Shown here: positions 16,176 to 38,837 of the stretch, piece after piece
How positions within the stretch are numbered: the first letter of the stretch is position 1
Layout of the letters: each line of letters opens with the position of its first letter
NCBI GenBank assembly: GCA_964479835.1
Contig: CAYZRE010000003.1
Span: 1-38,837 of the forward strand
DNA: 38,837 nucleotides
Reading direction: 5' to 3'
Origin: an uncultured Candidatus Saccharibacteria bacterium
GTDB lineage: Bacteria > Patescibacteriota > Minisyncoccia > 2-02-FULL-40-12 > GWA2-44-9
Position numbers and translations under genes: made by a program
The notes under the pieces: model-generated
What the model was told of the DNA's origin: nothing
The model's input: the letters and a program-made list of their open reading frames with translations, nothing else
Databases searched by the model: none

Positions 16176-18476
16176 ATGAATAACGAACCCGGACTGGCAA
16201 AGTGGCTGCGCTGGCTGATTTACGCCAGCGCGCTTGTGCCGCTAGTCATTTTCAGCCAGTACATGTCACCCTTCCACTTCGGGAAGGTGGTGGTGTTGCG
16301 CAGTATTGTGCAGGTGATGGGCGTTTTGTACCTCCTACTCATCTGGCGCGATCGTAGCTATCTGCCCAAGAGCCATCCGATTCTGTGGGCCTTTGTGGCG
16401 TTTACCGCCGCATTCACGCTTACGAGTATTACTTCGGTAGCCTCGATGCAGAGCTATTGGGGCACGCTCGAGCGCATGGGCGGCCTGTTTACCTTTTGGC
16501 ACTATCTCGCCTTCTTTATCATGATGGTGTCGGTTTTGCGTACACGGCGAGATTGGCAGATTCTTTTAGATATTATGATTGCCGTTGGAGTTGCATCAGC
16601 AATCTATGGCTTCCTGCAGAAGACCGATTGGTCATTCATTCTCGGTTCCGGTAATCGTCAGCGTATCTTTGGGACCATCGGAAATCCGGCGTTGTTCGCA
16701 GGGCATCAGATTCTGGCTGCATTTTTGGCACTGACACTTTCATTCATGCAGCGCACGGCAAAGAACTGGCGCATCTGGTACCGGATTGCGGGTGGCATGA
16801 TGCTATTAGCGGCCATGTCTACTGCGGTGCGCGGTTCGCTCGTTGGTATTGTAGTTGGTGTATTGGTGTGGGCATTGCTATGGAGTACTCTCGACCGCAG
16901 TAGGAAGGCGAAAACTGCACTTTTGACCGGCCTGTCCGGGCTTGTTGTTTTCGTTTTTCTGGCCATCATGCTGCGCGCCACCCCACTCGTACAGAACTCG
17001 CCGTATCTCACACGCATCACTGATTTTTCCAGCAGTACATTCACCGTAAAAACGCGCTTCTGGGCATGGTCCGCCGGCCTGAAGGGATGGAGTGAAAATC
17101 CCAAGACAGTGCTGCTTGGTTGGGGCCCGGAGAACTTCAATGTTCCGTTCAGCAAATACTTTAATCCAAAATTCTTCACCGGGCCGGGCGCGGAAACATT
17201 CTTTGACCGGGCGCATAACATGTTCATGGAGGTGCTGGTGACTATGGGACTGGTGGGATTGCTCACCTACATCAGTATTTTTGCGACCTTGTTCTGGGTA
17301 TTAGCAAAGATGATGCATGCGCCCGGGGACGGACGGGTGATGGGGATTGGTTTTACTGCCATGACGATTGCGTACATCATCCATAACTGTTTTATCTTCG
17401 ACACTTCTGCGAACTTTCTCACATTCTTCATGCTGTTGGCTTACGCGATGCATGTGTCCGTCCATGGAATGGACGGAAGTGAAAAGTTTCAAGTGCAAAA
17501 TGATAAATTGCGGAGAGCGAGGAGGGTTCCGTGGTCTGGGCTACAGGTCACAACTGCACTTGTACTTGGCGTTGTTGTGATGATTACTGTGTACGCGACG
17601 AACGTTCGACCGACGAAGGCGAACTACGCATCAACACGCGCCATCATCGCCGGCTGGCAGGGAGATTGGGTAGGTGCAGTCAACAAATACCGAGAAGCGA
17701 TTGATTACGACACCCCCGGACGCTATGAATTCCGGCACCGATTCGCCCAGTATCTGCTCGAGTTAAGCAGTTCGACGGATATTTCAAAGGTTCCAAACTT
17801 TACCGAGGTTACCCTGCAGGCGATTTCAGACATACAGAATAATGTTGCCGAAAATCCCCAGGACTATTTACCGCACCTCTATCTCTCGCGGCTTTATCTC
17901 ACATTGGGCAAAGAAAGTTCCAAGAGCCCATACAACGACACGGCACTCCAAGAATCCGCCAAAGCTTTGGAGATCAGCCCGACATTTGTGCGCACATACT
18001 ACGAAGTCGCGCAGGCATATCTGAACAAAGGAGATGCCCAGAGCGCGTTCATCTGGTTTGAAAAAGCAGCGAAACTGCAACCGGATGTCGGAACTACCTA
18101 TTGGTATATGGGTACGGTCAGATATCAAATTGCCGCGAAGACCGATGATACGGCGGGCCTGAAGGAGGCCGTCGGGTATTTCAGTACCGCACTGGAAAAG
18201 GGGCACTCACTTACCGAAAACGATGCAAAAATGTTAGTGAATGTTTTCCTAAAGGTAGACGACATGAATGGCGTTATAGCGGTATTCCAGCAATTGACCG
18301 CCGGTTTCCCGACTAATTCTCAGTATTGGAGATCGCTGGCGGAGGCGTACGCGAGAGCCGGCCGCACACAGGACGCAATCGCAACTTCTCGCAAACTCAT
18401 CGAGTTATTCCCGAATGACGCTCAAGTCAAAGCCGATGCCGAGAAGTTTATTCGTTCTCTCGGAGGAAGTATCTAG
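16176..18476 (+). CDS. O-antigen ligase/Wzy_C-family membrane protein with C-terminal TPR repeats (possible oligosaccharyltransferase)
   Basis: GTIGNPALFA, TAVRGS, RFWAW, GWGPENF, DRAHNMF, followed by TPR-like helices (ALEISPTF, AAKLQPD). Confidence 0.85.
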   Translation: MNNEPGLAKWLRWLIYASALVPLVIFSQYMSPFHFGKVVVLRSIVQVMGVLYLLLIWRDRSYLPKSHPILWAFVAFTAAFTLTSITSVASMQSYWGTLERMGGLFTFWHYLAFFIMMVSVLRTRRDWQILLDIMIAVGVASAIYGFLQKTDWSFILGSGNRQRIFGTIGNPALFAGHQILAAFLALTLSFMQRTAKNWRIWYRIAGGMMLLAAMSTAVRGSLVGIVVGVLVWALLWSTLDRSRKAKTALLTGLSGLVVFVFLAIMLRATPLVQNSPYLTRITDFSSSTFTVKTRFWAWSAGLKGWSENPKTVLLGWGPENFNVPFSKYFNPKFFTGPGAETFFDRAHNMFMEVLVTMGLVGLLTYISIFATLFWVLAKMMHAPGDGRVMGIGFTAMTIAYIIHNCFIFDTSANFLTFFMLLAYAMHVSVHGMDGSEKFQVQNDKLRRARRVPWSGLQVTTALVLGVVVMITVYATNVRPTKANYASTRAIIAGWQGDWVGAVNKYREAIDYDTPGRYEFRHRFAQYLLELSSSTDISKVPNFTEVTLQAISDIQNNVAENPQDYLPHLYLSRLYLTLGKESSKSPYNDTALQESAKALEISPTFVRTYYEVAQAYLNKGDAQSAFIWFEKAAKLQPDVGTTYWYMGTVRYQIAAKTDDTAGLKEAVGYFSTALEKGHSLTENDAKMLVNVFLKVDDMNGVIAVFQQLTAGFPTNSQYWRSLAEAYARAGRTQDAIATSRKLIELFPNDAQVKADAEKFIRSLGGSI

Positions 18477-18504
18477 CTGATAGCTTCTAGCTGTGAGCTG
18501 TGAG
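18475..18504. repeat. 7-bp-period AGCT tandem array (left flank of four-helix-bundle gene)
   Basis: AGCT at 18475, 18482, 18489 and 18496, then AG at 18503. Confidence 0.9.
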
Positions 18505-18518
18505 GGGGGATGGAATAT

Positions 18519-18872
18519 CTACGCCCTCAGCCGACTAATCATAGTCGCGAGCATCTTTTGGACCTCTTCGAGTAGATTAAAAGTTTTTTGCGACTCACCG
18601 ATTAGAAATAATCGATTTGCCAACAATAGTTGTGTTTCAAGTTCAGCCGCAGATCCATACGCAATTCTTAAGAACTGACTAAAATCCTTTGCGGTACTGC
18701 GCATTCTACCTTCAGCGATATTCGAAGCAATAGAAACTGCTGCTCTCCGCATTTGACTGGTGAGGCCGTAGAGCTCTTCTCTCGGAAGTTTTGCAGTAAC
18801 CCGATAAATCTCCTCGGTAAGTTCAAGGGATTTTTGCCATACGATGAGGTCTTTGAATGATTTTGTTATCAT
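18519..18872 (-). CDS. Four-helix-bundle protein (23S rRNA IVP / S23-like family)
   Basis: SFKDLIVWQKS, P.EE.YGLTSQMRRAAVSIASNIAEG, F...AYGSAAELETQL is a textbook family signature. Confidence 0.93.
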   Translation of the reverse strand: MITKSFKDLIVWQKSLELTEEIYRVTAKLPREELYGLTSQMRRAAVSIASNIAEGRMRSTAKDFSQFLRIAYGSAAELETQLLLANRLFLIGESQKTFNLLEEVQKMLATMISRLRA

Positions 18873-18880
18873 TTTCTATA

Positions 18881-18912
18881 AGCTAACAGCTATCAGCTCA
18901 AAGCTTAAAGCT
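18881..18912. repeat. 7-bp-period AGCT tandem array (right flank, inverted relative to left)
   Basis: AGCT at 18881, 18888, 18895, 18902 and 18909. Confidence 0.9.
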
Positions 18913-20278
18913 ATCTACCCGCGCGGCGGAGAGAGATACTGGCTGTCTTGAGGACGATTGCAACGTCCAGTGCCAGTGACCGGTGCTTGATGTAGTACAA
19001 ATCGTATTGAAGTTTCTGAGCGGCATCCTGGACCGAAGAGCCGTATGGATAGTTTATTTGTGCCCAGCCGGACAGGCCCGGTTTGATGAGATACCGCTCG
19101 CGATAAAATGGGATTTGTTGGGTGAGCTGTGCATCGAATTCTGGTCGCTCTGCTCGCGGGCCGACCAATGACATATCGCCGCGTATGATGTTCCACAATT
19201 GTGGAAGCTCATCCAATCGTGTTTTGCGCAAGAACTTTCCGATTGAAGTGATGCGCAAATCATTCTTATCAGCCCAGACGACACCCGTGGTCCGTTCGGC
19301 ATCAGGAACCATGCTTCTGAACTTTACCAGGGTAAACGGTTTGCCGCCGCGCCCGGTGCGCTGTTGGTGGATAAACGGATATCCTGGTGAGCTCAACCAT
19401 ATTGTCAGTAAGATGAACGGCGTCAAAATAATTGTCGGCACGCCCAGCACGACTGCCGCGACGACATCCATGACGCGCTTGAGTGTGTCGAAGGATTTCT
19501 TGGAACCCTCGGACATGTTGTCCAGAAACCACGCCTGATTAATTGCTCCCAACGGTACACGACCGGTGAGATGCTCGCTCATAGAGGCCAACGATGTGAA
19601 ATCAACTTGGCGCGAGAGTGCACCGTAGAAAAGGCCGACAACCTCGCTCATCTGATAGGCCGCAGGGCTGATGACGACCGTGTCGATACCGCTTTCCGCG
19701 ATGTACCGATCGACGCTTTCGAGGTCGTCGATAACCGGCCAGCGGACGCCACCGTCAATCAGCGGTAACCCCTCCTGGCCCAGGCGCACTAACGCACTGA
19801 CACGATAGCCCAGTTGCGGGTTGTCGGTGACAAGTGTCGCCAAATCCAACGATTCATTGTTAAGCCCCACGATAAGCAGTCGTTCCTTGGTGCCTTGGGC
19901 GATGACCTTGTTGTAGAGGTACCGGGTTCCCGACATGATGCAAGCGAATACGACCAGAAAAAGGAACAGATTTAATTTGGGCGTAATGCCGAAATAGGGG
20001 ATGAGATAAAAGAAGAGTACCGAGGCAATACTTGCGACCAGCATGGCCTGTCCCAGGCGTGTGAAAAAATAGCGGTCGTTGCGCATCATGCGCCGGTTGT
20101 ACAGATTAGAGATATAGAGGGCCAACAGCCACACGAGCAGAAGTAACGAGAAAGGGGTGCTGTGAACGCCCCACTGACTTTGCCACGTATCTTTCCCGTG
20201 GCGCACCAAAAGCAGGAGTGCCAAAGCGCCGTAGAATGCGACGAGGTCGGAGGCGATGAGGGTGAGCTTCTTGAGCAT
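18911..20278 (-). CDS. Polyprenyl-phosphate glycosylphosphotransferase (WcaJ/WbaP-like priming sugar transferase)
   Basis: N-terminal TMs, then KRVMD, KFRSM, DLRITSIGKFLRKTRLDELPQLWNIIRGDMSLVGPRAE, KPGLSGWAQI and YDLYYIK. Confidence 0.93.
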   Translation of the reverse strand: MLKKLTLIASDLVAFYGALALLLLVRHGKDTWQSQWGVHSTPFSLLLLVWLLALYISNLYNRRMMRNDRYFFTRLGQAMLVASIASVLFFYLIPYFGITPKLNLFLFLVVFACIMSGTRYLYNKVIAQGTKERLLIVGLNNESLDLATLVTDNPQLGYRVSALVRLGQEGLPLIDGGVRWPVIDDLESVDRYIAESGIDTVVISPAAYQMSEVVGLFYGALSRQVDFTSLASMSEHLTGRVPLGAINQAWFLDNMSEGSKKSFDTLKRVMDVVAAVVLGVPTIILTPFILLTIWLSSPGYPFIHQQRTGRGGKPFTLVKFRSMVPDAERTTGVVWADKNDLRITSIGKFLRKTRLDELPQLWNIIRGDMSLVGPRAERPEFDAQLTQQIPFYRERYLIKPGLSGWAQINYPYGSSVQDAAQKLQYDLYYIKHRSLALDVAIVLKTASISLRRAGR

Positions 20279-20372: not shown

Positions 20373-22088
20373 ATGAGGCGCATGTATGCACCTGTTCTGT
20401 GGTTTGCCATTTCGGCTGTCTTTGCGTTACCCGCTTCTGCCGATACACTAGGACAAACGCAGACATTCCGAGTGAACTCCTCTTTTGATGCATTGGGCGC
20501 AACCACTGCGTCTTTCACCTTGCGGGCAGTAGGCCAATACGGATATTTCTACATTGACAACCGGTATTGGGGAGCTTTGACTTCAGCTGAAGAGAGCCAG
20601 TTCGGTACGAACCTCAACGCACTCTCGGCCCAGTTCGATTCGACTATCTACCCCCGTATCACCTCGTTCTATGGTAGCGAGAACACGCCCGGTATCGATT
20701 CAGACTCGCATGTGGTTATGGTGATGGAGCGACTCATTGCGGGCAACGGCGGATACTTTGAAACGATTCACAATTACACCAAAGACCGCGCCCCCGACAG
20801 CAACGAACAGGAAATGATATATGCGAATGTCGAAAGCGTTCTCATCACGACGGGGAAGACATATGTGGCGCACGAGTTTCAGCACCTGACCTCCTTCAAT
20901 CAGAAAGAACTGCTCCGGAATGTCCAGGACGATGTATGGCTCAATGAAGCGCGGAGCGAATACGCAATTACGGTCTCGGGGCTCAGTGATCCCTATGCGG
21001 GCAGTACGCTCCAGCGACGCGCGCAGTCATTTGTCCGTACGCCCTCGGACTCGCTGGTTGAGTGGCCGAACACTTCCTTGGATTACGCCATCGCGTCCGT
21101 GTTCATTCATTATCTCGCAGACCGGTACGGGCAGGCCATCGTTGCCTCGACCGCACGAACAAGGGCGGCCGGTATCGTGGCAATCGACGAGTGGCTCTCA
21201 CAGAACGGCAAGGCCGAACGGTTTGGCGATATATTTTCTGACTGGATGATTGCGTCATATCTCAATGATCGGGGCGTTGATCCGCGTTACGGCTATGAGC
21301 GCGACGGACTGCGCCAAATACACGTAGCTCCGGTCGTAAGTGCGCGTCTGGACGGCACCAACGAGAGTTCTGACTATTCTGCATCGTTGAAAGAGTGGCA
21401 GCCGCTTTGGATTAAGAACGATGTATCGGCTACCGGTGGTACGGCCAATATGAATGTGCGCATCTCGGGGTCAGCCGATGCCCTATGGCGGGGCGCGGTC
21501 GTTGCGCAATATCGCGACGGCAGTAGCCGTGTCATACCGTTTCTGTCGGTGTACGGTGGCGCTGATGTCGTAGTCCCCACGCAATCGAACGGTTCTCAAA
21601 TTTCCTCCGCAACAGTTGCGGTTGCCCAGGGAATCAGTCAATCGGTCATCAATCGTAGCATCGTCGAAAGATCGGTAACGGTCACCATGTCGCTCGCAGA
21701 GATTCCCGGTGCAATCGCCACGCCGTTGCCTCAATCTTCACAGCCGATAAATGGTGATTTGATTCGTCGCCCCACAGAGGCAGAGATTTATGTGGTTTGG
21801 GGTCCATACCGCCGCTATCTGCCGCAAGGTGTGTTGAAACTGTATGGCTTCGAGAACCGCCCGGTGGCGGAAGTGACGAACGAAGTGTTTCTCCGATATC
21901 AGACCAGTAACTATGTGCGCGAAGACGGGCAGCAAAAAGTGTATGCCCTATGGCCTGATGGTACGAAGCACTGGATGCACATCACTGCGGCCCAGTGGGA
22001 CGCCTCCCTCCGTGATTGGGGAGCGATCTTTGTCGTCAACAGCGCTGAAATTGCGTGGTATGACACTGGCCCTGACATCACTCGCTAG
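20373..22088 (+). CDS. Secreted HEXXH zinc metallopeptidase (M30/immune-inhibitor-A-like) with short C-terminal repeat-like domain
   Basis: Signal peptide ending ..ALPASA, GYFYID, AHEFQH followed by WLNEARSE, and C-terminal GDLIR...IYVV...RR and VREDG..KVY...DGTKHW segments. Confidence 0.7.
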   Translation: MRRMYAPVLWFAISAVFALPASADTLGQTQTFRVNSSFDALGATTASFTLRAVGQYGYFYIDNRYWGALTSAEESQFGTNLNALSAQFDSTIYPRITSFYGSENTPGIDSDSHVVMVMERLIAGNGGYFETIHNYTKDRAPDSNEQEMIYANVESVLITTGKTYVAHEFQHLTSFNQKELLRNVQDDVWLNEARSEYAITVSGLSDPYAGSTLQRRAQSFVRTPSDSLVEWPNTSLDYAIASVFIHYLADRYGQAIVASTARTRAAGIVAIDEWLSQNGKAERFGDIFSDWMIASYLNDRGVDPRYGYERDGLRQIHVAPVVSARLDGTNESSDYSASLKEWQPLWIKNDVSATGGTANMNVRISGSADALWRGAVVAQYRDGSSRVIPFLSVYGGADVVVPTQSNGSQISSATVAVAQGISQSVINRSIVERSVTVTMSLAEIPGAIATPLPQSSQPINGDLIRRPTEAEIYVVWGPYRRYLPQGVLKLYGFENRPVAEVTNEVFLRYQTSNYVREDGQQKVYALWPDGTKHWMHITAAQWDASLRDWGAIFVVNSAEIAWYDTGPDITR

Positions 22089-30761: not shown

Positions 30762-32207
30762 ATGGAGCAAAAGCAAAAATTATCAGCTACGCACTTCTAT
30801 AAGTTCTTCCAGTGTCCTCACTGGATTTGGTACGACATTTACGCCGACAGCTCAAAGAAGCACGAGACCTCGCCGCTGTTGGATATCATCTACAAAGGAA
30901 AGATGCAGGATGCGGCCGGCTCGCTGGGAGCGCACAAAAAATTCGAAGAGCTCAAACCCGAACAGTACCGCGACCTGGAGGAAGCATACTTAGCAACATT
31001 GGCGCTGATGAAGCAGGGCAAGAACATCTACCACGGCGTGCTGATGACCGAAGATTGGGTGGGGATGCCGGATTTACTCGAAGCTCGGCCGGGCCACAGT
31101 TCGCTGGGCGACTTCCAATATGTTGCCTACGATGTCCAGCGCAATCTCGAACTCAAGGACGAGCACAAATTCCCACTCGTGTTCTACTCTCTTATCTTGG
31201 AGAAGATTCAGGGTGTGCGGCCTACTGAAGCATTCGTTATTGACCCGCAGGGCCATGAGCGGTCGTTTCTGGTGGGAGACTTTGTATCCCAGTTCCACAC
31301 AACACGCGCAGACATCGAGCGCATCCTCGCGGGCGATAAGCCGGCGCCGTTTCTGAAGTCCAGTTGCAAACGAACCCCGTGGTATTCGTTGTGCCTGGAG
31401 GGAACCGAGGGCTGTAACGATGTATCACTTATCTACCGGCTTTCGCAGGCCGACCAGCGACGCTTGTATGGCATCGGCATTCACACGGTCGCCGAACTTG
31501 CCGCCGCCGATGGCGACGACCTGCGCGGCAAACTGGAGGACTGGCAGTATGACAAAATCGTCCGGTTCCAAAATCAGGCACGCGTGCTCATGAGCGGTGA
31601 ACCACTCATCATCCGCAAACCGATGTTCCCACAGGTGCAGTATGAGGTTTTTTTCGACATCGAATCCGACCCGACCAGGGATGTTGATTATTTGTTGGGC
31701 ATGCTCGTACGCGACACGAAGTCGAACAAGGTGTTTTACTACCATCTGATTGCGGAGAAGCCGGAAGATGAGGCGGCGATGTGGGCAAAGTTTCTTGATG
31801 AGTTGGCAAAGTGGGAAGACTTCGCCATCTATCACTATGCGTTCTACGAGAAAATGGTATTCGATCGACTCGCTCTGCGGCACGGAGTCCCGCCGCTGTT
31901 GGCGCAGAAGTTCCACGAACACTCCGTTGACCTTCACCAGAAGACTATTGATTCAGTCGTGCTCCCGCTCTACTTCTACACACTAAAGGATGTGGCGAAG
32001 TACTTGGGCTACGCCTGGAGCGATGCCGAGGCCGGTGGCGCCGAGTCGGTCGTGTGGTATGACACATGGCTGCGCACCGGCGATCGCGCATCGCTCGACC
32101 GCATTATTCGCTACAACGAGGACGATGTTCGCGCCACCATGCTTCTGCGCGACTGGCTTGCCTCTCAAAAGCCCTCTAAGGGCAAGGCCGAAAAACTCGA
32201 AGAGTAA
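30762..32207 (+). CDS. TM0106-family RecB-like putative nuclease with C-terminal RNase H-like domain
   Basis: GMPDLL, HhH-like YGIGIHTVAELA, FFDIESDP, YHY..YE, VDLH, YTLKDVAKYLGY.W, YNEDDVRAT. Confidence 0.85.
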   Translation: MEQKQKLSATHFYKFFQCPHWIWYDIYADSSKKHETSPLLDIIYKGKMQDAAGSLGAHKKFEELKPEQYRDLEEAYLATLALMKQGKNIYHGVLMTEDWVGMPDLLEARPGHSSLGDFQYVAYDVQRNLELKDEHKFPLVFYSLILEKIQGVRPTEAFVIDPQGHERSFLVGDFVSQFHTTRADIERILAGDKPAPFLKSSCKRTPWYSLCLEGTEGCNDVSLIYRLSQADQRRLYGIGIHTVAELAAADGDDLRGKLEDWQYDKIVRFQNQARVLMSGEPLIIRKPMFPQVQYEVFFDIESDPTRDVDYLLGMLVRDTKSNKVFYYHLIAEKPEDEAAMWAKFLDELAKWEDFAIYHYAFYEKMVFDRLALRHGVPPLLAQKFHEHSVDLHQKTIDSVVLPLYFYTLKDVAKYLGYAWSDAEAGGAESVVWYDTWLRTGDRASLDRIIRYNEDDVRATMLLRDWLASQKPSKGKAEKLEE

Positions 32208-37110: not shown

Positions 37111-38703
37111 ATGCCTGAAAACCCTGACAACGATGTCGTGCTGTTCGGAAATACCGAGTTCCGGAACTCGGTATCGAACTTCGGCATCAAGCTCGACGAC
37201 CGACGCCGGCACATGTATATCATCGGAAAATCCGGTATGGGCAAATCGGAGCTGTTGAAGACGCTGGCGATTCAGGACATCCAGGACGGCCGAGGGCTCT
37301 GCTTCATGGACCCGCACGGCGATGCGGTGTTCGACCTGTTGGATTATATTCCTCCCGAGCGCGTCAAAGATGTCATTTTCATCAACCCTGCGGATATGCA
37401 GTATCCGGTCGGGTTTAATGTCATGGAACAAGTCGGTTTTGATCAGCGCCATCTGGTCGCCGATGGCATGATGGCCGTGTTTAAGAAGATTTGGGAAGAC
37501 GCATGGTCGGCGCGCATGGAGTACATTCTCAACAACACAATCCTGGCCCTTTTGGAGGCCCCGGGCTCAACACTTCTGGGCATCAACCGCATGCTGGCGG
37601 AGAAAGAATACCGCAAACGCGTCGTTGACCAGGTCACCGATAGTGAAGTGAAGGCATTTTGGACGCAGGAGTTTGCAAAATACAGCGACAAATTTGCCAG
37701 CGAGGCGACTGCGGCAATTCAGAACAAGGTTGGACAGTTTGTATCAAATTCGCTGATACGAAATCTGGTCGGACAGGCAAAATCGACCTTCAATATGCGC
37801 GAAGCGATGGACCAGCGAAAAATTATCCTGGTGGATATTTCCAAGGGGCGTATTGGTGAGGATGCCAGTCGCCTGCTGGGCGCCATGATTATCACCAAGA
37901 TTCAATTAGCGGCGATGTCACGCGTCGATATTCCCAAGTACGAACGCGCCGATTTTACACTCATTGTGGATGAGTTTCAGAACTTTGCCACCGCATCGTT
38001 CGCCAATATTCTCTCGGAGGCGCGTAAATTCAATCTCTCCCTCATTGTCGGACATCAGTACATCAAACAACTGGATGAGAAAGTCGCGGAAGCGGCATTT
38101 GGTAATGTGGGGACTATTATCTCGTTCCGTATCGGAGCCGAAGACGCGGAATTTTTGGAAAAAGAATTTGCGCCGGAGTTCATGGCGACCGATATCGTGA
38201 ATCTTGGGTTTCGCCAAATCTACCTCAAGCTGATGATTGACGGAGTGACCAGTCACGCGTTTTCAGCCATGACGATGGATACACCGTCAAAACCGGAGCA
38301 CAGCACCCGCAGTGAGGTCATCGAGTATTCCCGTACGATGTATTCGCATCCGCGTGCCGAGGTGGAGGCGGCAATTGTCGCCTGGCGGGCTCCCATCGAA
38401 CCACCGCACCCAACCGCACCGTTTCCGTCGCAGTCTGTCGGGCGGCCACCCCAGCGCCAGGAGGCGCCGGCACCCCGACCCGCCACGACACCTCGACACG
38501 ACAATCGACCGCCGAAAAGATTTGACCGGCCTCCGCAACGCTCGCCGGGGGCGCCGTTGGATGCGCTTAAGAGCGAACCCGTTGATTTCAAGGGTCGAAC
38601 TAGCGAACCGGAAAAACCCCCGCATGCGACCGGGACGAGTATTCCCTCGGTTTCCAATCAGGATCTCAAGTCCCTCATCGCAAAAGCATTGGGGAAAAAA
38701 TAG
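37111..38703 (+). CDS. VirD4/TrwB/HerA-like (DUF87-type) P-loop ATPase, type IV secretion coupling-protein-like, with Pro-rich C-terminal tail
   Basis: RRRHMYIIGKSGMGKS (Walker A), MDPHGD, LIVDEFQNF (Walker B), ILSEARKF, GNVGTIISFR. Confidence 0.88.
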   Translation: MPENPDNDVVLFGNTEFRNSVSNFGIKLDDRRRHMYIIGKSGMGKSELLKTLAIQDIQDGRGLCFMDPHGDAVFDLLDYIPPERVKDVIFINPADMQYPVGFNVMEQVGFDQRHLVADGMMAVFKKIWEDAWSARMEYILNNTILALLEAPGSTLLGINRMLAEKEYRKRVVDQVTDSEVKAFWTQEFAKYSDKFASEATAAIQNKVGQFVSNSLIRNLVGQAKSTFNMREAMDQRKIILVDISKGRIGEDASRLLGAMIITKIQLAAMSRVDIPKYERADFTLIVDEFQNFATASFANILSEARKFNLSLIVGHQYIKQLDEKVAEAAFGNVGTIISFRIGAEDAEFLEKEFAPEFMATDIVNLGFRQIYLKLMIDGVTSHAFSAMTMDTPSKPEHSTRSEVIEYSRTMYSHPRAEVEAAIVAWRAPIEPPHPTAPFPSQSVGRPPQRQEAPAPRPATTPRHDNRPPKRFDRPPQRSPGAPLDALKSEPVDFKGRTSEPEKPPHATGTSIPSVSNQDLKSLIAKALGKK

Positions 38704-38782: not shown

Positions 38783-38837
38783 CCGCCCGTAGCTCAGTTG
38801 GTAGAGCTGCTCCCTTTTAAGGAGAAGGTCGCTGGTT
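38783..38837 (+). tRNA. tRNA-Lys (anticodon UUU), 3'-truncated by window edge
   Basis: CCGCCCG-TA-GCTC-AGTTGGTA-GAGC D-arm, CTCC/GGAG anticodon stem with loop CTTTTAA (TTT at 38816-18), AGGTC variable loop, start of T-arm GCTGG-TT. Confidence 0.9.

Follow-up and report, generated by a model that had tools for sequence, protein, structure and literature searches.

A four-helix-bundle gene between inverted heptamer arrays, a putative small cassette inserted at the boundary of two convergent glycan-synthesis genes

Introduction

Intervening sequences (IVSs) of 23S rRNA that carry an open reading frame (ORF) are reportedly treated in the Coxiella and Leptospira literature, including work by Ralph and McClelland from 1993. 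Small and transposase-free, the Correia/NEMIS elements of Neisseria have inverted ends and are inserted at the borders of genes, with which they are co-transcribed; their hairpins are processed by RNase III. They do not code for protein, number hundreds of almost identical copies in a genome, and show defined terminal repeats as well as a TA duplication. The cyanobacterial STRR sequences represent another class, that of intergenic heptamers repeated in tandem.

The 23S rRNA IVS of Coxiella burnetii (located in helix 45) carries two to three tandem copies of the heptamer GACAGAT directly before the start codon of its S23p ORF, and RNase III cleaves its 28-bp terminal stem in vitro (Warrier et al. 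2016, PMC4990558). This IVS has no transposase and is regarded as selfish or once mobile, and its S23p protein was reported as probably untranslated (PMC4990558). Intergenic heptamers were described in Xanthomonas (GGGAATC) and Nostoc (GGGGA(C/T)T), where they lie less than 50 bp from stop or start codons and follow a stop with their G-rich strand, and about 70 'convergent' inverted pairs are present per Xanthomonas genome (Rehm et al. 2015, PMC4692102). An intergenic heptamer of Beggiatoaceae is TAACTGA (MacGregor 2015, PMC4679880).

In this study, a gene of the S23p family enclosed by two inverted heptamer arrays was analysed in a 38.8-kb stretch of DNA (referred to as the window).

Results

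Organization of the cassette

The cassette and its neighbours comprise the following features:

18474-18913, minus strand: whole cassette (arm, spacer, ORF, spacer, arm), 440 bp, with ends approximate to +/-9 nt
18879-18913, minus strand: upstream arm (relative to the ORF), five 7-nt units (TAGCTTT, AAGCTTT, GAGCTGA, TAGCTGT, TAGCTTA)
18873-18878, minus strand: spacer between the last upstream-arm unit and the ATG, 6 nt (TAGAAA on the minus strand)
18519-18872, minus strand: four-helix-bundle (4HB) ORF, 117 aa, 23S rRNA intervening-sequence protein (S23p) family, with the motif RxxxSxxxNxxE
18505-18518, minus strand: spacer between the ORF stop and the downstream arm, 14 nt
18474-18504, minus strand: downstream arm (relative to the ORF), which on the plus strand reads TAGCTGA, TAGCTTC, TAGCTGT, GAGCTGT, GAG
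16176-18476, plus strand: left neighbour, outside the cassette, Wzy_C (O-antigen-ligase-like) and TPR protein, 766 aa
18911-20278, minus strand: right neighbour, sugar transferase (Bac_transf) of 455 aa, located upstream of the cassette ORF and running in the same direction

Re-reading of the sequence confirmed the arrays as described in the first-pass annotation: AGCT recurs exactly every 7 nt, and the arrays are inverted to each other and start at the TAG stops of both neighbours. The stop of the Wzy_C/TPR gene (TAG, 18474-18476, plus strand) is supplied by the downstream arm and that of the Bac_transf gene is the first TAG of the upstream arm (reverse complement of 18911-18913). Both arrays contain AGCTGATAGCT (the left one on the plus strand, the right one as the reverse complement). 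Tandem Repeats Finder reported a period of 7/14 at both, and an inverted-repeat search recovered 22-nt arms (18479-18500 and 18894-18915) with 86% complementarity (19/22). All five matches to AGCTN3AGCTN3AGCT in the window fall within the two arrays, and 100 shuffles gave none. The AT-richness noted earlier for the ORF was reproduced (37% and 42% GC for the lines at 18560 and 18620); GC content reaches its minimum in the cassette (42.7% vs 54.0% in the remaining window), and 0 of 342 other 440-nt segments were that low.

No second copy of the cassette was found within the 38.8-kb window. A profile search of the neighbourhood, which consists of glycan-synthesis genes, detected no recombinase, transposase or reverse transcriptase in or adjoining the cassette, and Rfam detected no rRNA in the window, its sole match being a partial tRNA.

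The encoded protein

The window protein matched PF05635 (129.4 bits, cut-off 33.8, E 7.6e-38, residues 7-109 of 117), TIGR02436 (126.1 bits, cut-off 24, E 6.3e-37) and NF008911 (147.4 bits, cut-off 137). Its segment R43-AAV-S47-IAS-N51-IA-E54 fits the motif RxxxSxxxNxxE, whose columns are invariant or almost so in the family alignment and which is part of GxxRxxxSxxxNxxE (PMC3936711). The protein is homologous by sequence to XCC0516 (PDB 2GSC, E=3e-23), a pentamer in its crystal (5 chains in the entry), and also to 2RLD. The background given there, that this family is encoded in 23S rRNA IVSs with RNase III-cut stems and resembles Avd proteins, was correct. An identity as DGR Avd itself was rejected, as the scores of the Avd models fall under both cut-offs (PF22296, 22.4 bits, cut-off 40; NF033474, 21.5 bits, equivalog cut-off 80) and the neighbourhood is without a reverse transcriptase.

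Empty sites and lateral arrival

The suggestion that this is a small, transposase-free mobile cassette, for which an empty site in relatives had been proposed as a check, gained support from two kinds of loci. Five relatives (L220, L221/L222, L361/L362, L363 and L364/L365) have an empty orthologous site, at which the stops of the two convergent ligase and transferase genes overlap or are 14 nt apart, and none of the five retains array remnants. Locus L219 holds the same cassette at the same site, 96% identical at the DNA level, between flanks (the Wzy, Bac_transf and next genes) that share just 74-77% identity with those of the window. Identity jumps sharply at the array ends, from ~75% to >92%, and reaches 94-97% in the arms and ORF (96.8% in the downstream arm and 94.3% in the upstream one), with 92.9% in the 14-nt spacer; orthologues of the left neighbour (Wzy_C/TPR) are 66-81% identical. 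Where the amino acid is conserved between the window and L219, the codon differs in 8.8% of cases in the 4HB gene, compared with 45-46% in the flanking genes, and silent-site divergence is ~5x lower in the cassette than in its flanks.

These alignments identify 18474-18913 as an insertion placed exactly between the stops of two convergent genes, and date the cassette as far younger than the surrounding genome, so that its arrival was by lateral movement. Either the same site was hit in two diverged lineages or the cassette passed from one lineage to the other. The 4HB genes of the window and L219 differ by 10 synonymous and 3 conservative changes, which shows the ORF to be under purifying selection. 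Judging from the homologue searches, cassette movement is rare, because neither a second copy in the window nor a near-identical cassette at any other site was found and identical 4HB proteins always share one genomic context. Comparison of the cassette ends with the empty sites and L219 revealed no convincing target-site duplication. Register shifts by heptamer slippage, which had also been envisaged, were not borne out: the number of units is equal in the window and L219, and the arrays of one other cassette are invariant over 8 contigs.

Flanking arms across the family

Periodic inverted flanks, for which the first-pass annotation had proposed a test, proved to be present at 4HB loci elsewhere. 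Among 174 non-redundant homologous loci from many phyla (arms called at complementarity z>4), 134 (77%) have complementary arms, compared with 1 of 162 displaced controls (0.6%); in ~23% of family members no arms were detectable. The design of a gene with inverted arms thereby extends, on the sequences compared, to about three quarters of the family and to many phyla. The period is 7 nt in 98 loci, 8 nt in 21 and 9 nt in 8, the median arm measures 30 nt (usually 4-5 units), arm complementarity averages 88%, and the median outer-to-outer length is 455 nt vs 440 in the window.

Unit sequence varies among cassettes, even within one metagenome bin (L007 vs L026), while the protein core is highly conserved; the arm sequence was found to differ from cassette to cassette, yet within any one cassette the two arms always match. 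Arms of the AGCT type follow the protein phylogeny (64% vs 51% identity), with a nearest-neighbour concordance of 25/31 against a background of 23%. At orthologous sites, both arms change in concert (L035 vs L066; GGGAATC in Xanthomonas vs GGGATTC in Dokdonella).

The upstream gene is co-directional in 100 of 125 loci (80%) and divergent in 12, and the ATG of the next gene lies a median of 13 nt past the arm; the surveyed cassettes are seen to occupy gene boundaries, mostly following a gene of the same direction and in many cases with the next start codon only a few bases away. The arms are arranged as X...rc(X) in 105 loci vs 16, and the first arm has at least three TAG in 54 loci and at least three CTA in 7, so that the arm met first on either strand is the G/T-rich version, commonly with TAG. 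Recurring with a 7-nt period, TAG closes all three reading frames.

The cassettes are not specific to glycan loci, and elsewhere sit in accBC, tkt, ahcY-metF, ABC-transporter and cas operons. The XCC0516 gene, with GGGAATC arms, lies between accB and accC in Xanthomonas, and the accB-accC cassette is conserved across Xanthomonas, Luteimonas and Dokdonella. In most syntenic pairs, the cassettes co-diverge with their flanks, i.e. show long vertical residence; at one site (L258 vs L260), the cassette was replaced (ORF 67%, flanks 87-92% identity).

Heptamer arrays are also common without the 4HB gene, which the first-pass annotation had not foreseen, and solo TAGCTTN arrays are found in many phyla. 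A 4HB gene is present on the same stretch in 3 of 119 TAGCTTN-array loci (one being a weak match), in none of them within ~680 nt, and ~12% of these arrays have a nearby inverted partner.

Transcription and RNA folding

The 6-nt spacer is too short for a promoter of the cassette ORF, and neither a sigma-70-like site on the minus strand nor a clear Shine-Dalgarno sequence was found. No intrinsic-terminator-like site (hairpin with a T/U-run) was detected within 18300-19100. The Bac_transf gene is the likely source of cassette transcription. Folding of the minus-strand transcript, which had been proposed as a check, paired the two arms in the predicted minimum-free-energy structure (471 nt, -139 kcal/mol, z=-2.8); the predicted fold of the arms alone has -32 kcal/mol (z=-3.3). 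G.U-compatible arm mismatches number 139 on the strand antisense to the gene vs 90 on the mRNA strand (p=0.0015), and this excess off the mRNA strand is not as predicted by selection for an mRNA stem. By analogy with the rRNA elements, and given the predicted pairing of the arms and the 80% of family members that follow a co-directional upstream gene, it is plausible that the cassette acts as an mRNA-level IVS, with arms pairing in the transcript and cleaved by RNase III.

Discussion

We consider it probable (at roughly 70%) that 18474-18913 is one copy of a widespread, small, laterally inserted cassette whose transcript is processed at an RNA stem. The cassette would be transcribed by read-through from the sugar-transferase gene, and its TAG arrays would provide a clean stop to translation of both neighbours. 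Pairing of the arms in the transcript would give an imperfect stem of ~25-35 bp with the ORF looped out; by analogy with the same architecture in Coxiella 23S rRNA, this stem may serve as a substrate of RNase III, and such cleavage would let operons and rRNA tolerate the insertion. The 4HB protein (Avd-like, and pentameric in the XCC0516 crystal) probably works on nucleic acid of the element itself, in its maintenance or movement.

The lateral insertion would also be compatible with an element that works at the DNA level, in which case only the RNA-processing part of the above would have to be replaced. The arrays, as terminal repeats, would then form a hairpin or cruciform when the DNA is single-stranded, and a host or trans-acting enzyme would use them for integration, excision or gene conversion from arm to arm; any RNA stem would be incidental. 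This is a tentative possibility, favoured by the wobble asymmetry towards the non-mRNA strand, by the concerted arm changes (which need sequence exchange between the arms), by the precise boundaries and lateral transfer of the cassette, and by the existence of gene-less inverted array pairs and solo arrays (see also PMC4692102). It is weakened by the lack of a recombinase or transposase in or beside the cassette and of a clearly found target duplication, and the difference in arms between cassettes, even in one bin, makes a sequence-specific trans-acting enzyme unlikely; moreover, the sole experimental precedent, that of Coxiella, concerns RNA. A reverse transcriptase could instead have copied the stem-bounded transcript together with the Avd-like protein, the units arising by reiterative, telomerase-like copying. 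The family is indeed homologous to DGR Avd, a reverse transcriptase cofactor (with weak matches to PF22296 and NF033474), and both the 7-9 nt units and the G-rich strand resemble telomeric repeats. Such RNA-borne movement is nevertheless very improbable: it is purely an analogy, the neighbourhood has no reverse transcriptase, the Avd equivalog score stays far below its cut-off of 80, and an A-to-N mutagenesis pattern and a TR/VR pair are absent.

Two further explanations may be considered. The gene may be a long-resident host gene with cis-regulatory repeats, whose patchy presence reflects loss rather than gain, and whose arrays are iterons, operators or RNA sites bound by the pentameric 4HB protein, autoregulating or insulating the flanking cistrons. 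The co-divergence of most syntenic pairs with their flanks, the placement kept between accB and accC, the purifying selection on the ORF and the typical 4-5 units per array, together with the pentameric state of the 2GSC protein, speak for it. We regard it as unlikely in view of the five-fold lower silent divergence from L219, the five empty sites with stops overlapping or nearly abutting and without array remnant, and the cassette replacement between L258 and L260; wholly different units beside a conserved protein core also argue against sequence-specific recognition. The arrays could, finally, be a mere bidirectional terminator or low-complexity sequence unrelated to the ORF, as the convergent genes and the self-complementary AGCT cores might suggest. 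This is contradicted by the comparative data and scarcely credible, as there is no hairpin with a U-run, the arms stand ~400 nt apart on either side of an ORF, the gene and arms recur in 134/174 loci with unrelated units and mostly between co-directional genes, and the arrays are missing from the empty orthologous sites.

Among known systems, DGR Avd and the 4HB family share a homologous four-helix-bundle fold and, as homology suggests, a pentameric assembly, and PF05635 is the commonest family beside DGR reverse transcriptases. Unlike Avd, which is accompanied by such an enzyme and by template/variable repeats, the cassette has neither in its neighbourhood, and its Avd scores are far under the cut-offs. 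With Correia/NEMIS elements the cassette shares small size, absence of a transposase, inverted ends and a position at a gene boundary; it differs in encoding a conserved protein under purifying selection, in being single-copy in the window, and in having arms of tandem units that differ between cassettes, with no clear duplication. A MITE of this kind was rejected, since the cassette is protein-coding and single-copy in the window and no near-identical copies were found at other sites. The arrays themselves are head-to-tail 7-nt units abutting gene ends, like those of the STRR/GGGAATC type, and the XCC0516 arms are exactly the Xanthomonas GGGAATC repeat. Unlike the cassette, most published intergenic heptamer arrays have no gene between or beside them; they were read as G-quadruplex or regulatory elements, and the 4HB gene goes unmentioned there (PMC4692102, PMC4679880).

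The closest known relatives of the cassette are the ORF-bearing 23S rRNA IVSs. The cassette sits between protein-coding genes (Wzy_C/TPR and Bac_transf), whereas 23S IVSs lie in an rRNA helix (25 or 45); its heptamer unit differs from that of Coxiella and its arms, unlike those of 23S IVSs, double as the source of the neighbours' stop codons. Cleavage by RNase III is experimental for the Coxiella IVS and only inferred for the cassette. Both encode a protein of one family (S23p/PF05635), are of similar size (428-444 nt in Coxiella vs 440 nt), and combine stem-capable terminal inverted repeats with tandem heptamers before the start codon and no transposase.

Organization of the cassette

The window carries a glycan-synthesis locus (YfhO, GT4, methyltransferase, flippase, ligase-like and priming transferase genes, then secA and others), and the names under which the left-neighbour orthologues are recorded point to Patescibacteria (CPR). 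Within this locus, a small gene for a four-helix-bundle (4HB) protein lies between two short-unit repeat arrays, hereafter called arms, as follows:

16176-18476, plus strand, left neighbour (Wzy_C+TPR gene)
18474-18504, left array, read on the plus strand as TAGCTGA TAGCTTC TAGCTGT GAGCTGT GAG
18519-18872, minus strand, 4HB ORF of 117 aa; PF05635 (23S_rRNA_IVP) 129 bits, TIGR02436 ('four helix bundle protein') 126 bits
18879-18913, right array, whose reverse complement reads TAGCTTT AAGCTTT GAGCTGA TAGCTGT TAGCTTA
18911-20278, minus strand, right neighbour (Bac_transf sugar transferase gene)

Both arrays are as the first-pass annotation had read them and, also as it had claimed, each convergent neighbour uses the outermost TAG of the adjoining array as its stop codon. 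The motif AGCTN3AGCTN3AGCT occurs 5 times in the 38.8-kb window, each time within the two arrays, and 0 times in 100 shuffles. The 7-nt periodicity was detected by Tandem Repeats Finder, and a repeat search found an inverted pair of 22 nt with 86% complementarity between the arrays. The GC content of the 440-bp cassette is 42.7% vs 54.0% elsewhere, the lowest of any 440-nt segment in the window. A homologue of the encoded protein, XCC0516, has been crystallised (2GSC, E=3e-23).

Three other features of the window were recorded. A 571-aa ORF without a Pfam match (20373-22088) lies beside the sugar transferase gene, and its position and size (570-598 aa) are kept in the related contigs L219-L221 and L364-L365. 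Proteins with an RNase_H_2 superfamily domain and a TrwB-like type IV coupling-protein domain are encoded at 30762-32207 and 37111-38703; these may be part of a conjugation-like apparatus, with no link to the cassette. A partial tRNA gene (38783-38837; Rfam RF00005, 34.4 bits) is truncated by the window end.

Insertion and age of the cassette

Contigs of relatives were fetched by means of left-neighbour orthologues (66-81% identity). In one of them (L219, 81%) the same three genes are present, with the 4HB gene in between, while in others (L220, L361/L362 and L363, 78-79%; L221/L222, 75%; L364/L365, 70%) the site is empty. At the empty sites the convergent stops overlap by a few bases (e.g. 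CCT-TAG-CGA, with TAA on the opposite strand) or are separated by 14 nt, and no array remnants were found at any of them. The L364/L365 contigs carry a different, distant PF05635 gene (2084-2452) one junction upstream, between the flippase and Wzy genes, with arms that are at most weakly periodic.

The comparison of the window with L219 is summarized below.

Table. Divergence between the window and the filled site of relative L219
Region; nucleotide identity; codons differing among those with a conserved amino acid
Wzy gene; 76.6%; 46%
Left arm; 96.8%; -
4HB ORF; 96.3%; 8.8%
Right arm; 94.3%; -
Bac_transf gene; 74.2%; 45%
Following gene; 77.2%; -

Sliding identity to L219 rises and falls at the outer array ends. 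The high identity of the arms and ORF, together with the low silent divergence, indicates that the cassette is far more recent than the split between the two hosts. Among the 13 changed codons of the 4HB gene, 10 changes are synonymous and 3 conservative, and the ORF is under purifying selection. No high-identity tract extends into the flanks past ~9 nt, and this speaks against ordinary homologous exchange. The pattern reflects either two entries into the same site or a site-directed passage between the two lineages. The cassette in the window encodes a protein, was acquired laterally and has matched inverted arms; it sits exactly where the two neighbouring genes end and provides their stop codons. 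The earlier idea of a mobile, transposase-free cassette gains support both from the empty sites in relatives and from the L219 copy, which is far more alike than its flanks.

No target-site duplication could be established at the junctions of the window and its relatives. A direct repeat, TATCTA, present at the two junctions in the window was considered as such a duplication and rejected, since it lacks conservation in L219 and would imply neighbours without conserved stops; a TA or TAG(C) microhomology at the insertion point is possible. Near-identical copies at other sites were not found in genome and metagenome collections or by exact-protein look-ups. As for a defence or phage role, there was no PADLOC or PHROG match and no tblastn match in phage genomes.

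Gene and arms across the protein family

Homologous loci were drawn from one-genome-per-species and metagenome collections, with the gene placed by profile and near-duplicates dropped, which left 174 loci with both flanks. Scoring by exact 21-nt self-matches undercounted arrays, because some cassettes have 8-9-nt spacing and some ORF calls extend into the arrays; k-mer chains and local alignment were used instead. When the upstream flank was aligned locally with the reverse complement of the downstream flank (significance at z>4, flanks displaced by 300 nt as the control), complementary arms were present in 134 of the 174 loci (77%) vs 1 of 162 displaced controls, so the periodic inverted flanks noticed in the window recur in its homologues. 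The dominant period within arms is 7 nt in 98 loci, 8 in 21 and 9 in 8, and the median length is 30 nt for an arm and 455 nt from outer end to outer end. The units are highly diverse among cassettes (TAGCTTN, GTGAGTG, TAGGTNN, CAGTGNA, GGGACAA, GGTTTTC, GGGAATC and others); despite this diversity, both arms within one cassette match.

AGCT-type arms track the protein phylogeny, with an identity of 64% within the class vs 51% between classes and a nearest neighbour of the same class in 25 of 31 cases (background 23%), which indicates that gene and arms evolve together as a unit. Comparison of orthologous sites shows that the two arms of a cassette have changed together (GGGACAA in locus L035 vs GGAATYA in L066; GGGAATC in Xanthomonas vs GGGATTC in Dokdonella), and such change needs DNA-level exchange between the arms. 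An invariant protein core alongside unrelated units speaks against recognition of the unit by its sequence.

The family comprises 23,484 clusters at 50% identity (E<=1e-3), and its hosts include CPR, Gammaproteobacteria, Clostridia, Bacteroidota, Acidobacteriota, Planctomycetota, Actinomycetota, cyanobacterial plasmids and Methanophagales archaea. In most syntenic pairs the cassette diverges in step with its flanks, which points to long vertical residence; younger cassettes occur in some pairs (L006/L011, 81% vs 60%), and in one pair (L258/L260) the cassette has been replaced (ORF 67%, flanks 87-92%). The register shifting by slippage that had been proposed for the heptamers was not seen, the arrays being unchanged over 8 contigs of one cassette (P0099). 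Identical 4HB proteins always share one context and this, together with the unchanging arrays, suggests that cassette movement is rare. On plasmid gamma of Nostoc PCC 7120 (L358, 598-948), a family member lies beside an ISL3 transposase with 7-nt arrays (ACTTCAA... upstream, CTTCTGC... downstream); these look direct, not inverted, and may be an exception to the inverted-arm rule.

Position relative to neighbouring genes

In 100 of 125 loci the upstream gene is co-directional and ends at or in the upstream arm (divergent in 12); both neighbours are co-directional in 64 loci, and the downstream gene is convergent, as in the window, in 29. The ATG of the next gene lies a median of 13 nt past the arm. 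The arms follow the order X...rc(X), X being the G/T-rich version, in 105 loci vs 16, and at least 3 TAG occur in X in 54 loci (CTA equivalent in 7). As the arms are inverted repeats, this X-first polarity holds on both strands, and translation from either side runs into stops, all three frames being covered at a 7-nt period. TAG is the stop codon of 51 of the 100 upstream genes that end at an arm.

A specificity for glycan loci was not borne out, as other examples split unrelated operons. The XCC0516 cassette separates accB and accC in Xanthomonas, Luteimonas and Dokdonella (loci L262-L266, gene at ~1501-1900), with arrays of the GGGAATC / GATTCCC type between the accB stop and the accC start (in Dokdonella the unit is GGGATTC in both arms); the accC ATG abuts the downstream array directly and a Shine-Dalgarno sequence is not visible in these loci. 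Other cassettes split the two halves of transketolase, ahcY/metF, the ATPase and permease of an ABC transporter, and cas6/cas4 on the Anabaena sp. 90 plasmid pANA02 (L360, gene 601-969; GGTGACA/GGGAACA upstream, CTGTCAC downstream).

At the transketolase locus, a 58-nt tandem duplication upstream of the gene at ~2501 comprises the upstream array and the 5' end of the annotated ORF; it is a population polymorphism, with some contigs carrying it (L350, L353, L355-L357) and others lacking it (L351, L354). In several CPR lineages (L004, L024, L048, L061, L071, L073, L231-L234) the same conserved gene is immediately preceded by a cassette; the product of this gene begins MQFKVPQF...EDKIFGP and is tentatively taken to be a PrgI-like protein of a conjugation/type IV-like system, and the arm units vary by lineage.

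Proposed transcription and predicted pairing of the arms

A scan found no promoter-like or terminator-like site in the cassette on the strand of the 4HB gene. A promoter within the arrays, with TAGCTT resembling a -10 hexamer, was rejected, as it would lie at inconsistent distances from the ATG in different loci and the scan was negative; the last unit is only 6 nt from the ATG of the 4HB gene. Transcription would reach the cassette from the sugar-transferase gene that lies upstream. The arms pair in the fold predicted for the 471-nt transcript (z=-2.8), and for the arms alone -32 kcal/mol is predicted (z=-3.3), the helix consisting of AGCU cores broken at the variable positions. Such pairing would probably also take place within the transcript, and the stem may be cleaved by RNase III, by analogy with Coxiella, which would explain tolerance of the element inside rRNA and essential operons. 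An intervening sequence (IVS) acting at the mRNA level, as first suggested for the window copy, is plausible.

A comparison of G.U- and A.C-type mismatches speaks against a simple mRNA-stem model, as its outcome was in the opposite direction: in the 134 loci with arms, G.U-compatible mismatches numbered 90 on the mRNA strand vs 139 on the opposite strand (p=0.0015). This asymmetry may be due to mutation bias, or it may be the opposite strand that folds, in the form of single-stranded DNA or of antisense RNA.

Arrays without the gene

Arrays are poor markers of the gene. A search across genomes with TAGCTTNTAGCTTNTAGCTT, i.e. (TAGCTTN)3, returned 119 loci from many phyla, only three of which had a 4HB gene on the same stretch; one of these genes was a weak match and none lay closer than ~680 nt to the array. 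Among 91 testable arrays, 11 (~12%) had an inverted partner 10-223 nt downstream with no gene between, 5 showed the opposite arrangement and the rest were solo. Long solo arrays of up to ~16 units occur in Acidobacteriota, Vibrio, Alcanivorax, Chryseobacterium, cyanobacteria and CPR (L100-L218), mostly in intergenic regions near gene ends (e.g. L141 17-127, L145 1546-1628, L135 6411-6472). A common unit for the solo arrays and cassette arms of one genome is found in Xanthomonas; L141 and L152 gave no support for it. The occurrence of heptamer arrays is thus wider than that of the 4HB gene, which itself is almost always enclosed by a pair of arrays.

Interpretation and significance

To our knowledge, the family has been without a known function since 1993. 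We propose, with a probability of roughly one in four, that 4HB genes with inverted short-unit arms represent the autonomous members of a class of prokaryotic mobile elements that is very widespread and so far unrecognised. These would insert exactly at gene boundaries (including those of essential operons, and rRNA helices) and be neutralised in RNA by arm pairing and RNase III, as a bacterial mRNA 'intervening sequence'. The small pentameric protein, similar to Avd (the accessory protein of diversity-generating retroelements), would make, homogenise or move the arrays, and gene-less arrays and inverted pairs (Xanthomonas GGGAATC, cyanobacterial STRR, TAGCTTN) would be non-autonomous relatives or footprints. 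If excision at the RNA level is true, it would show how bacteria tolerate operon insertions without splicing.

The interest lies more in the family-wide syntax exposed by the window copy than in the copy itself: a huge family receives a defining genomic arrangement (a gene with inverted heptamer arms, located at a gene boundary), lateral insertion is directly evidenced, and loci such as XCC0516 between accB and accC of Xanthomonas offer tractable models. Three literatures that are apparently unconnected in searchable papers, i.e. those on rRNA intervening sequences, bacterial heptamer repeats and Avd-like proteins, are hereby joined.

Comparison with known systems

Zhang et al. described 18 family members in cas loci and proposed a functional link (PMC3936711). 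Since the same placement is found in many unrelated operons, insertion between cistrons is a simpler reading, and these members are a warning against guilt-by-association. Rehm et al. reported ~185 GGGAATC arrays per Xanthomonas genome, ~70 convergent pairs included, located <=50 bp from stops or starts and interpreted as G-quadruplex motifs (PMC4692102). These repeats are exactly those that flank XCC0516, but the 4HB gene is unmentioned in that paper.

Within the freely searchable full-text literature, only a paper on Coxiella links the family to heptamer repeats, and the gene-plus-arms arrangement as a general rule is apparently unreported. The family name derives from ORFs in 23S rRNA intervening sequences. 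The Coxiella IVS is 428-444 nt long, its terminal stem of 28 bp is cleaved in vitro by RNase III, and two or three tandem GACAGAT heptamers, their number varying by strain, precede the start of the S23p ORF, which is probably untranslated (Warrier et al., PMC4990558). It has the same architecture as the window cassette in another setting, and the latter is an IVS-type S23p element outside rRNA.
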